From contig JAXINV010000008.1 of assembly GCA_034190465.1 (NCBI GenBank), forward strand, positions 1 to 29,250: DNA of 29,250 nt. The letters are read 5' to 3'. Positions 3,608 through 18,161 of the stretch are shown here, in pieces. A model generated the notes under the pieces. That model made no database searches. It saw only the letters and a program-made list of their open reading frames with translations, and was not told where the DNA came from. A program made the translations under genes and the position numbers. The stretch comes from Candidatus Asbonarchaeum danakilense. Lineage in GTDB: Archaea > Nanohalarchaeota > Nanosalinia > Nanosalinales > Nanoanaerosalinaceae. The stretch's first letter is position 1, and every line of letters starts with the position of its first letter.

Positions 3608-3653
3608 ATATTGATGCTGTGACCGGGGGCATAAAATCATTGTGCGTCAGGAG

Positions 3654-3673
3654 AAGAGAAGGGAGAAAAAGAA
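3654..3673 (-). terminator. T/pyrimidine-rich archaeal terminator-like tract
   Basis: Minus strand reads TTCTTTTTCTCCCTTCTCTT directly after the closing helix of the structured region. Confidence 0.55.
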
Positions 3674-4081
3674 GGGGTACGCCCCTCAGGCCCGAGGTGT
3701 GGGGGGAACGGCTTTTGTCGTGGGGCCTGAAAAGGCAGGGACGCCCGGCAGCCCTGTTACGGGCTGCCTGACGCGGGGATGAGGACGACCTGCTCCAGCG
3801 GGCGCCGGTCACGTGCTCGGGGGATGTAAATGAGGCACATGACCCGCTCCGCATCCAGCGTGGCGTGGCCACGCTGTCGGGGGAAGCCAGTCGTCCTAAT
3901 ATAGGTTTTGTGGGGGGAACCTAATAGACCGCTGAAGGGCGTCCCTGCCGGGGACGCATCCCCTTGTGGCGAGATCATCCCGCCATAGTGGCACACCGTA
4001 TTGGCGCTGTGCCATGTTAGTGGGGGTTGCAAGCGCTGTGCGCTTGACTAACATGGGACCGGGGGAGCACTCCCCCGGTCC
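3674..4081 (-). ncRNA. Unidentified highly structured RNA (ncRNA or ftsZ 3' UTR)
   Basis: Perfect 13-bp long-range helix 3734-3746/3937-3949; closing helix 3674-3685/3950-3963; many local hairpins; 10-bp helix 4012-4021/4047-4056; 12-bp hairpin 4056-4081. Non-Watson-Crick pairs are G-U on the minus strand. Confidence 0.7.
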
Positions 4082-4091
4082 TCGGTTACGT

Positions 4092-5165
4092 TCATTGCTG
4101 TTTGATGACCTTGAGCCCGAGATCGTCCATGTCTTGGACGTCGGCCTCTTTCTCTTCCTCGTCGACAGGGCCGAGCACGTAGGGGGACTCGACACCGGTA
4201 ATGATCGAGATGACCTGGACCTTGCCCTGGAGTTCCTCGCTGATCCGTGCGCCCCAGATGACCTGGGCCTGCGCGTCCAGCTTGTCGATCACTGTCTGAC
4301 CGATATCGTTGATCTCGTTGAGGGACAGGTCCTCACCACCTTCGACATGCACCAGCGCGCCTGTGGCACCCTCGAAGTCGACGTCCAGAAGGGGGTTGCT
4401 GAGCGCCTCTGCGATAGCTTCCTTCCCCTTGTTCCTGGTATCGGACTCACCGTAGCCTACCACGGCAACACCTCCGGAATGCATGATGGCCTTGACGTCT
4501 GCGTAGTCCAGGTTGACGAGAGAGGGCTCGGAGATTGTCTCCGTAACGCCCTGTATCATGGTTGTTATCAGTTCGTCGGCCACGCCGAACGCCTGGTCGA
4601 GCGGCATGTCACCGGCTATGTCAATCAGCTTGTCGTTCTCGATCACGATCGCCGTATCGACGAACTCACGGAGCTTGTACAGCCCATCCTCTGCCTTCGA
4701 CTTCCGCGCGCCCTCGATCTGGAACGGCATCGTCACCGTACCGATCACGATGCAATCCTCCGACTTCGCGATGTCAGCGAGAACAGGGATCGCACCCGTA
4801 CCGGTGCCGCCACCGAGGCCCGCACAGAGGAATACCATATCAGCATCAGCGAACAGTGATCGGAGCTCAGAGCGGTTCTCCTCGGCAGCCTTGGCACCCT
4901 TCTCCGGGTGGCCACCTGCGCCGAGTCCACGGGTGAGGTCCTGGCCGATCAGGATCTTCCGGTCAGCCTTCGACATCTTCAGGTGCTGCTTGTCAGTATT
5001 GACAGCAAGCGTCTCGGCACCGGCAACGTCCTTGTCCTGCATACGAGTGATCATGTTGTTGCCAGCTCCCCCGATCCCCGCTACAAGGATCTTTGCATCT
5101 TTTATGTCCTCAAAATCGTTTGCTGCTTGGTCTTCATCCGCCGCGTCTTCGATGATTGAATCCAT
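4092..5165 (-). CDS. ftsZ: Cell division protein FtsZ
   Basis: GIGGAGNN, AVNTD, GLGAGG, GLGGGTGTG tubulin signature and NLDYAD. Start placed at MDSIIEDA, after a purine-rich SD-like stretch. Confidence 0.97.
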   Translation of the reverse strand: MDSIIEDAADEDQAANDFEDIKDAKILVAGIGGAGNNMITRMQDKDVAGAETLAVNTDKQHLKMSKADRKILIGQDLTRGLGAGGHPEKGAKAAEENRSELRSLFADADMVFLCAGLGGGTGTGAIPVLADIAKSEDCIVIGTVTMPFQIEGARKSKAEDGLYKLREFVDTAIVIENDKLIDIAGDMPLDQAFGVADELITTMIQGVTETISEPSLVNLDYADVKAIMHSGGVAVVGYGESDTRNKGKEAIAEALSNPLLDVDFEGATGALVHVEGGEDLSLNEINDIGQTVIDKLDAQAQVIWGARISEELQGKVQVISIITGVESPYVLGPVDEEEKEADVQDMDDLGLKVIKQQ

Positions 5166-5478
5166 TGCTATCTCCTCTATCGTTGTGCTGGAGCACAACA
5201 ATCTTTTTGTGTGAGGCGTACCCACCTACTACTGCCCACGGTCGGTTAGAAGAACTCTAATCGATCACTATCAATACCTAGCAAAGACTAGTTGATCAGA
5301 AGTTGCCCAACTTCACTCGTGTTTCGCCCGTTCGGTTCATGCCCACACGAATCGTGCCCGCGATTCGCGTTGAACCGGAACGCGAAATCCTGAATCGGAA
5401 GTCTCGATCACGTTCCTGCGCCCAACAGGACAGTGATCAAATCCCGAATAGTTCTACCCACTTATTTTCCTTCCAGAC

Positions 5479-5487
5479 TATATAAAG
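5479..5487 (-). promoter_or_regulatory. TATA-box candidate for ftsZ
   Basis: Minus strand CTTTATATA in the AT-rich ftsZ/gatC divergent intergenic region. Confidence 0.4.
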
Positions 5488-5593
5488 GTTTCCTGCAGTC
5501 AGACATGTGTATTCCATCGCAAGGGTCGTTCTCACGCAACCTCCATTCCGGCCAGCGACAGCATTAAATACCTTGCCGGGTCCAGTCTCCCGC

Positions 5594-17762: not shown

Positions 17763-18077
17763 TCAGCTCTCCTCCAAGACGTCACAGGTAAGGATGCCGT
17801 TGCGGTGCCTGTCGATGTGGTCCTCGATCGCAGCGAACAGATCATCCACCACAGCATCGTTCAGCGCATAGATCCGCTCATTTCCCTGGACCTCCCGTTC
17901 CGCGAACCCGCAGTTCGTGAGGCAGGACAGGTGGTACGACACCGTGTTCTGCGCCAGCCCGGTCGCCGCAGCGATCTCGTTCACCGACCGCTCGCCGTCC
18001 CGCAGCGCCTCGACGACCTGCATCCGTGTCTCATCGGCCAGTGCCTGGAACAGCCTCGCGTACACCCTGGCATCCAT
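17763..18077 (-). CDS. ArsR/SmtB regulator with CmtR-like Cys ligands
   Basis: FQALADETRMQV...SVNEIA...VSYHLSCLTNCGF plus a C-terminal Cys (alpha4C-type site). Confidence 0.9.
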   Translation of the reverse strand: MDARVYARLFQALADETRMQVVEALRDGERSVNEIAAATGLAQNTVSYHLSCLTNCGFAEREVQGNERIYALNDAVVDDLFAAIEDHIDRHRNGILTCDVLEES

Positions 18078-18094
18078 ATCAACGATGTTTGATA
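18077..18094. promoter_or_regulatory. Inverted-repeat operator for the ArsR operon
   Basis: TATCAA-N6-TTGATA between a TATA-like element (~18102-18109) and the start codon. Confidence 0.7.
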
Positions 18095-18161
18095 CAGGGC
18101 GGTATAAAGATCGGGGTCTCATCCGGTCGCCCTCAAAGAAAAATGAGGGACCGTCCAGGCC

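Follow-up and report, generated by a model that had tools for sequence, protein, structure and literature searches.

The ftsZ locus and its trailer

The window, which is the whole stretch of 29,250 nt that was analysed, is contig C10 of a 1.2-Mb genome (the source genome, G000; 92% complete). An ftsZ gene lies on its minus strand, and a structured 3' trailer lies in the gap that separates the ftsZ stop (4092) from a small membrane ORF, which is followed by eIF5A. The product resembles FtsZ2, a label based on a comparison of the C-terminal tail, which is nearer to that of Haloferax FtsZ2 than to that of FtsZ1, and not on a reference tree. Orthologues in relatives match at 70-92%, and nearly all relatives carry a separate paralog at 45-50%. 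A short ORF overlapping the ftsZ stop was not kept in G001, the single congener among the relatives compared. The features of the locus are as follows (SD, Shine-Dalgarno).

3652-3659, minus strand: degenerate anti-SD of 8 bp, one of them G-U, past the first U-tract
3664-3673, minus strand: U-tract, probable transcript end
3664-4091, minus strand: complete 3' trailer, consisting of four hairpins, a branched main domain and the U-tract
3674-3963, minus strand: branched main domain with closing helix, 13-bp helix and nested stems (RNAalifold with G001)
3701-3706, minus strand: C6 tract in the loop of the last hairpin (fold and G001 alignment)
3770-3782, minus strand: UCAUCCCCGCGUC, invariant in G001; complementary to ftsZ codons 7-11 (13 bp, one bulge)
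3819-3823, minus strand: C5 tract in a hairpin loop (fold)
3879-3883, minus strand: C5 tract GGCUUCCCCCGA, complementary to ftsZ codons 31-34
3898-3909, minus strand: linker AAAACCUAUAUU, whose AUAUU core is also seen elsewhere on the 5' side of stems with C-tracts
3912-3917, minus strand: C6 tract in a hairpin loop (GUUCCCCCCACA), unpaired in the minimum free energy fold and invariant in G001
3967-4054, minus strand: hairpins H2-H4, H2 with an unpaired C5 bulge at 4022-4026
4056-4081, minus strand: hairpin H1 (3' arm 4056-4068)
4092-5165, minus strand: ftsZ, FtsZ2-like, 357 aa from the ATG at 5165 (TIGR00065, 395 bits)
5065-5077, minus strand: ftsZ codons 30-34, with the gene's only G5 run (rare GGG codon)
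5134-5147, minus strand: ftsZ codons 7-11, with a conserved GCG as codon 8
5166-5488, minus strand: region upstream of ftsZ, with a TATA box at 5479-5488 and six GGGC(A/G) hairpin-array motifs at 5234-5424
5171-5178, minus strand: SD-like AGAGGAGA

A sequence-only reading of this DNA had described the gap behind ftsZ as a large structured RNA. The helices it quoted were all found where it had placed them: the 13-bp helix GGCAGGGACGCCC (3734-3746 with 3937-3949), the closing helix (3674-3685 with 3950-3963) and the nested stems AGGACGAC (3782-3789 with 3890-3897), CAGCGTGGC (3856-3864 with 3868-3876), GGCAGCCC (3747-3754 with 3761-3768), TAGGTT (3902-3907 with 3918-3923) and TCAGGCCC (3686-3693 with 3723-3730). 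The T-run that it saw after the element is the U-tract at 3664-3673 on the minus strand, and U-rich transcription termination is established in archaea (PMC8501993). It overlooked the five C-runs that lie in or beside open loops of the trailer.

The region 3650-4092 folds at -229.7 kcal/mol. Its z-score is -10.3 for the minus strand, where none of 100 shuffled sequences folded as well, compared with -5.5 for the plus strand. At the corresponding site of the congener lies a copy with 70% identity, in which the C-run loops are invariant and the CAACCCC(C)AC bulge of H2 is also present. RNAalifold of the two sequences gave 72 consensus pairs, with 13 double-sided changes and seven single changes, all of them to G-U on the minus strand. 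The trailer is a sense-strand RNA structure under selection. It bears some resemblance to the ORB elements of replication origins, but an origin reading was rejected on account of the strand-specific wobble.

No relevant match to a known RNA was obtained with Rfam for the window and eight related loci; the window had no match at the gathering score, only noise appeared at E<=10, and no tRNA or tmRNA was found in it. Archaeal SRP RNA and RNase P RNA are alike in having about 300 nt and a helix joining the ends, but their motifs are missing here and the true copies are at other loci, in agreement with their earlier dismissal. The region had no covariance-model match to archaeal SRP RNA (RF01857, including the helix-8 motif), and the SRP RNA of the genome is on contig C3 (107.5 bits, above cut-off). 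The CR-I/CR-V pseudoknot motif and a model match to archaeal RNase P RNA (RF00373) were likewise absent from the region, the genome's copy being on contig C18 (E 2e-23). This RNase P RNA (C18:1096-1430) scores 81.9 bits against 84, just below the Rfam cut-off, and would escape standard annotation. Contigs C13 (about 17850-18150), C31 (299-620) and C46 (2381-2458) of the source genome carry tandem repeats of tRNA 3'-end sequence, which are typical of integration scars.

Trailers behind ftsZ2 across the Nanohaloarchaeota

A BLAST-type DNA search of 60 relatives matched the congener alone, and homologues were therefore located by synteny, extracting the sequence that follows the ftsZ orthologue and setting the trailer end by the C-tracts. 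This gave 57 loci. In two of them the contig did not include the stop and one had only 49 nt (with two tracts), leaving 54. C-tracts were present in 52/54, nearly all unpaired and inside long stems; the two exceptions were G003, with C4 only, and G054, where the contig end cuts the trailer. Eight more genomes, inspected by eye, all had C-tracts, bringing the total to 60/62. Behind the paralog a tract was seen in 1 of 13 trailers, as an unenclosed terminator. The trailer is specific to the ftsZ2 orthologue.

The sense strand had the better z-score in 50/52 trailers (median -6.0 vs -2.7). In an alignment-free count of 1x1 sites in trailer helices, taken from folds computed without G-U pairs, G-U outnumbered A-C by 55 to 20 (27 genomes vs 7, kin not being independent), and in 18 pairwise alignments the excess was weak (29 vs 21). 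This G-U bias marks the sense strand of the trailer.

From the first stem to the last tract the trailers span about 50-430 nt, and stems and branching differ between genomes. The constant parts are a C-tract in a loop (UUCCCCC(C)R in the family of Asbonarchaeum, ACUCCCCUCCCCCC in f3, the largest family) and an AUAUU-type linker (ATATT in 43/60 trailers, with the variants AUGUU/AUACU/AUGCU); lineages that use an SD also retain complementarity to the 5' region of the own mRNA. RNAalifold of ten f3 modules gave no consensus because their stems do not align, and each module folds alone. A metagenome scan returned mostly f3-type loci, with no new complete trailer of Asbonarchaeum's family.

The sequence-only reading had left a choice between a new multi-domain ncRNA and an ftsZ 3' UTR. 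The second branch stood, as the trailer starts a few bases past the stop on the ftsZ strand and has equivalents behind the orthologue, and not the paralog, throughout the phylum; no clear promoter of its own was found for the element, as had been noted. The first, taken as a fixed-fold RNA gene, is unsupported, since size and branching vary freely between genomes. We regard an independent ncRNA gene, or just an ornate terminator, as very improbable. Such a reading could draw on the main domain of the Asbonarchaeum genus, where a single helix closes 290 nt, on the TATA-like AAAACCTATATT and on the pyrimidine tracts that are also found behind other genes. However, fold and size are not fixed across relatives, the trailer begins a few bases past the stop in many genomes, and the TATA-like motif lies inside the element, with AUGUU/AUACU/AUGCU as variants. 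The element is also unique in the source genome, where no further copies were found and 5/154 WWC5R sites form one cluster, in the trailer, every other cluster having at most two. The trailer is a conserved 3' UTR architecture of ftsZ2 and not a fixed-fold RNA gene.

Some further observations concern the surroundings of the trailer. In G003 and G006 a basic, Arg/Lys-rich ORF of about 35 aa separates ftsZ2 from the structured trailer, and in G015 and G027 an ORF of 13-14 aa does so. The stems that close the f3 C-loops often start with a GGAGG arm resembling an SD (GGAGG is present in 40/60 trailers; modules L029-L064), which makes the C-loop and the 3' arm alternative partners for this arm. Some f3 genomes (L067, L103, L104, L106) have a Zn-finger gene directly after the trailer, which presumably resembles an archaeal NusA paralog and could be a candidate KH-type binder. 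In G018 and G024 an unstructured pyrimidine tract of C4-T-C7 type follows a small ribbon-helix-helix gene, CdrS-like by eye; one CdrS-like query gave no tblastn match in the source genome.

Complementarity between the two ends of ftsZ2 mRNAs

In the congener, a perfect 11-bp anti-SD over its own SD lies just before the U-tract. A 3' anti-SD, a mechanistic hallmark of type I toxin mRNAs, was found in G001 and in 19/37 loci of one Aenigmarchaeota clade, is degenerate in the source genome and is absent from f3. The trailer of the source genome also has a 9-bp match to the ribosome-binding site (RBS) region off the SD, which is not retained in the congener and is probably due to chance. Among 14 non-f3 genomes, a complement of at least 9 bp to the own RBS region was present in 7/14, compared with 14/182 cross pairs. 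In f3, which has a weak SD, 0/45 trailers reach 9 bp to their own RBS and no 5' window showed an own-over-cross preference; the C-tracts are nonetheless most conserved in this family. The best partners for the f3 tracts, at Gly codons of the tubulin signature (44 matches near +330-360), were rejected as unspecific because GGA is the usual codon there.

Two sites within the coding sequence are also complementary to the trailer. The contact of UCAUCCCCGCGUC with codons 7-11 was matched as well by only 2/176 other CDS windows in the source genome and 3/176 in the congener. G003 and G007 lack it, in G008 it is weak and in G006, G002 and G004 it is weaker than here, and the G002 site pairs better with the trailer of the source genome than with its own. 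The second site, codons 30-34, includes the G5 run, which the C-loops of the trailer match. The C5 tract GGCUUCCCCCGA is complementary to codons 31-34 and the 3' arm of H1 to codons 30-34 (13 bp, one G-U, 4056-4068 with 5065-5077), but this arm is sequestered in its local stem and the congener does not conserve it. At codon 32/33 the rare GGG is found in 7/7 genomes of the Asbonarchaeum family with pure C-run trailers, and GGA in G003 and G006, the two with weaker ACCCCUCUC-type trailers. Elsewhere GGG occupies this codon in 4/45 f3 genes, 3/50 Aenigmarchaeota-type genes and 1/7 paralogs, and in the source genome it starts just 55/1137 Gly-Gly pairs.

The GCG at codon 8 is kept in 7/7 and codon 32 in 6/7, placing them among the 10/110 four-fold columns so conserved, and the first 14 synonymous sites are all identical between the source genome and the congener (204/316 overall), although codon conservation at the 5' end has frequent other causes and kin are not independent. 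Folding of the whole mRNA supported the codon contacts in the congener but not in the source genome, where the G5 contact reached only 0.02-0.09; the RBS contact in G015 reached 0.06. Such folding is unspecific, as 6/16 control genes also paired the RBS with the tail at >=0.66.

Scanning with aligned FtsZ sequences from outside the nanohaloarchaea returned 80 loci, of which 66 were analysed; the 14 dropped were 11 nanohaloarchaeal loci (by label, sequence or isolate series), two without downstream DNA and one without a start. The Aenigmarchaeota-type ftsZ2 trailers are short. Own RBS and own trailer were perfectly complementary over 10 bp or more at 19/66 loci, compared with 3.6% of cross-genome pairs. 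All 19 fall inside one 37-row clade (quick tree, SH-aLRT 98), and outside it 0/29 Aenigmarchaeota-type loci had such a complement. The complement tracks variants of the SD, reaching 14 bp in L110, 15 in L135 and 13 in L119 and L116. In within-subclade permutations 0/20000 were as good as the own RBS-trailer match, and in 13 sister pairs the own combination was better than the swapped one in nine, worse in two and tied in two. In sequence from three such genomes (crude ORF calls), ftsZ2 ranked joint second for this match among 367 ORFs in 400 kb of G070, and first both among 291 in 320 kb of G073 and among 74 in 76 kb of G074. CCCYCC within 60 nt past the stop is rare (3/367, 2/291, 3/74 and 26/1047), and the anti-RBS match is not a general terminator feature. 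An ftsZ2 trailer with a covarying anti-RBS segment is present, at the level of sequence, in one Aenigmarchaeota clade and some SD-using nanohaloarchaea. In a separate Aenigmarchaeota clade without the anti-RBS match, ftsZ2 is immediately followed by a short acidic ORF in which a WDP motif is conserved (L137, L140, L144, L150, L151, L159, L160).

Binding of a protein could give the tracts a role that needs no 5' pairing. The open C-tracts and AUAUU linkers would bind a poly(C)- or pyrimidine-binding protein, which could set half-life, 3' processing or localisation; KH-domain proteins, e.g. a NusA paralog or aCPSF1, are candidate binders. This explanation, which we consider rather unlikely, would fit f3, where the tracts are kept in open loops of 15-30 nt although an RNA partner was not found, and where 42/53 exact genome-wide matches to the 11-mer CCCCTCCCCCC fall in the ftsZ2 trailer. 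The number of tracts per trailer (1-6) is as in a multivalent site, and aCPSF1 cleaves CA/CC near U-rich ends (PMC8501993). It leaves unexplained the trailers that follow their own SD flanks base by base and the conserved synonymous codons.

Possible roles of the trailer

The reading that we prefer is that the ftsZ2 trailer folds back from 3' to 5' and gates FtsZ2 translation, which on the sequence comparisons we hold to be an even call. The stems would act as a scaffold that holds the C-rich and anti-RBS segments single-stranded until their partners, i.e. the SD, codons 7-11 and the G5 run at codons 32-33, are met. When transcription reaches the 3' end, these contacts could close the mRNA and block new initiation. 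The outcome could be a short, mostly co-transcriptional burst of FtsZ2 per transcript, or silence until the tail is trimmed or opened by a protein, with the AUAUU linkers as candidate sites of cleavage or binding. In the SD-poor f3, where the tracts persist, a protein may bridge the contact, or the partners may be the G-loops of the leader.

It is plausible, if somewhat short of even, that an RNA-only closed loop controls ftsZ2 in two DPANN phyla, with a 3' tail clamping the initiation region that has grown into a multivalent C-loop scaffold in nanohaloarchaea. The nanohaloarchaeal trailer could be an expansion of the short Aenigmarchaeota anti-SD tail or could have arisen in parallel to it; the two lineages are not sisters in the tree, so that homology of their tails is not established.

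A comparable arrangement is found in bacterial toxin mRNAs. In aapA3/IsoA3 of H. pylori a 5'-3' long-distance interaction is described, in which the 3'-terminal anti-SD of the full-length transcript pairs with its own SD (PMC6733600, in the text available). The likeness to this system and to hok/Sok would lie in a 3' anti-SD against the own SD, as seen in the congener and part of the Aenigmarchaeota. A type I toxin-antitoxin mRNA was rejected for our locus, as the ORF is FtsZ, an essential archaeal division GTPase, and not a short toxin, and no antisense antitoxin gene was evident; the large scaffold tail, the several C-tracts and the contacts within the CDS are further differences. In Haloferax, 5' and 3' UTRs interact functionally, both being needed and the direction being encoded by the 3' UTR; in its available text the 2009 study gives no mechanism and states that no 3'-UTR-binding factor was known then (PMC2636863). 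Our case differs in gene, lineage and its explicit predicted base pairs.

A likeness also exists to the cuckoo/CcsR RNAs of Alphaproteobacteria, which derive from a 3' UTR and consist of repeated hairpin modules whose stems vary while the C-rich loop is conserved (PMC4615179, PMC8034643, as far as their accessible text goes). By analogy, modules cut at AUAUU could act in trans as sRNAs, their C-rich loops pairing with the G-rich RBSs of other mRNAs, and CCUCC does occur within the f3 loop. We consider this unlikely. The motif CCUCCUCCC, which cuckoo/CcsR RNAs have in the loops of two to four adjacent hairpins, is absent here, there is no DUF1127 neighbour, and Rfam scores stay below cut-off (ar15 15.1 bits vs 40). 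The pure C-runs in the loops of the source trailer pair poorly with GGAGG, and among 34/795 genes with GGGGGA near the start no division-related target stands out. The five ncRNAs of a nanohaloarchaeal transcriptome include none with trailer motifs by eye (PMC10266531 Table S3), and in the accessible part of the same study ftsZ is expressed and has gatC on one side and the gene of a transcription elongation factor on the other. The evidence favours a target in cis.

The trailer is not the only hairpin element at this gene. A G-loop hairpin array upstream of ftsZ2 and the C-tract trailer flank one gene, this paralog only, and the complementarity of G-loops and C-loops is obvious, which invites a loop-loop kissing between the tracts and the GGG hexaloops of the array. 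We regard this as quite improbable because the shared pairing is 2-3 bp only, the loop variants GGGC, GGGA and GGCG have no mirror in the tracts, and loop and tract numbers are uncorrelated (rho 0.19, p 0.17, n 54). The leader also lacks a G-U bias (29 vs 22) and is inverted in some Aenigmarchaeota. The array may function at the DNA level, or be a separate RNA upstream of a second promoter. The array occurs in Aenigmarchaeota as well (often TTGGGGGA), and the inverted cases are L120, L122, L128 and L137 (20 motifs in reverse and 114 in forward orientation). The start codon is preceded, at about 35-70 nt, by a TTTAAAAA box, which is degenerate in the Asbonarchaeum genus.

In the literature within reach on nanohaloarchaeal, DPANN and archaeal ftsZ, UTRs and ncRNA (subscription papers and bioRxiv supplements lying outside it), the trailer and its SD complementarity are undescribed. 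The trailer is a real cis-element with a testable closed-loop mechanism. If the RNA-only closed loop is true, it would be the first physical 5'-3' pairing in an archaeal mRNA and a post-transcriptional division timer in host-dependent symbionts. Covarying predicted base pairs between the ends of an essential division mRNA are a directly mutable test case. For the question of how DPANN symbionts time their division relative to host attachment, the ftsZ2 trailer, present in 60/62 of the nanohaloarchaeal genomes examined, offers a concrete handle whatever the mechanism.
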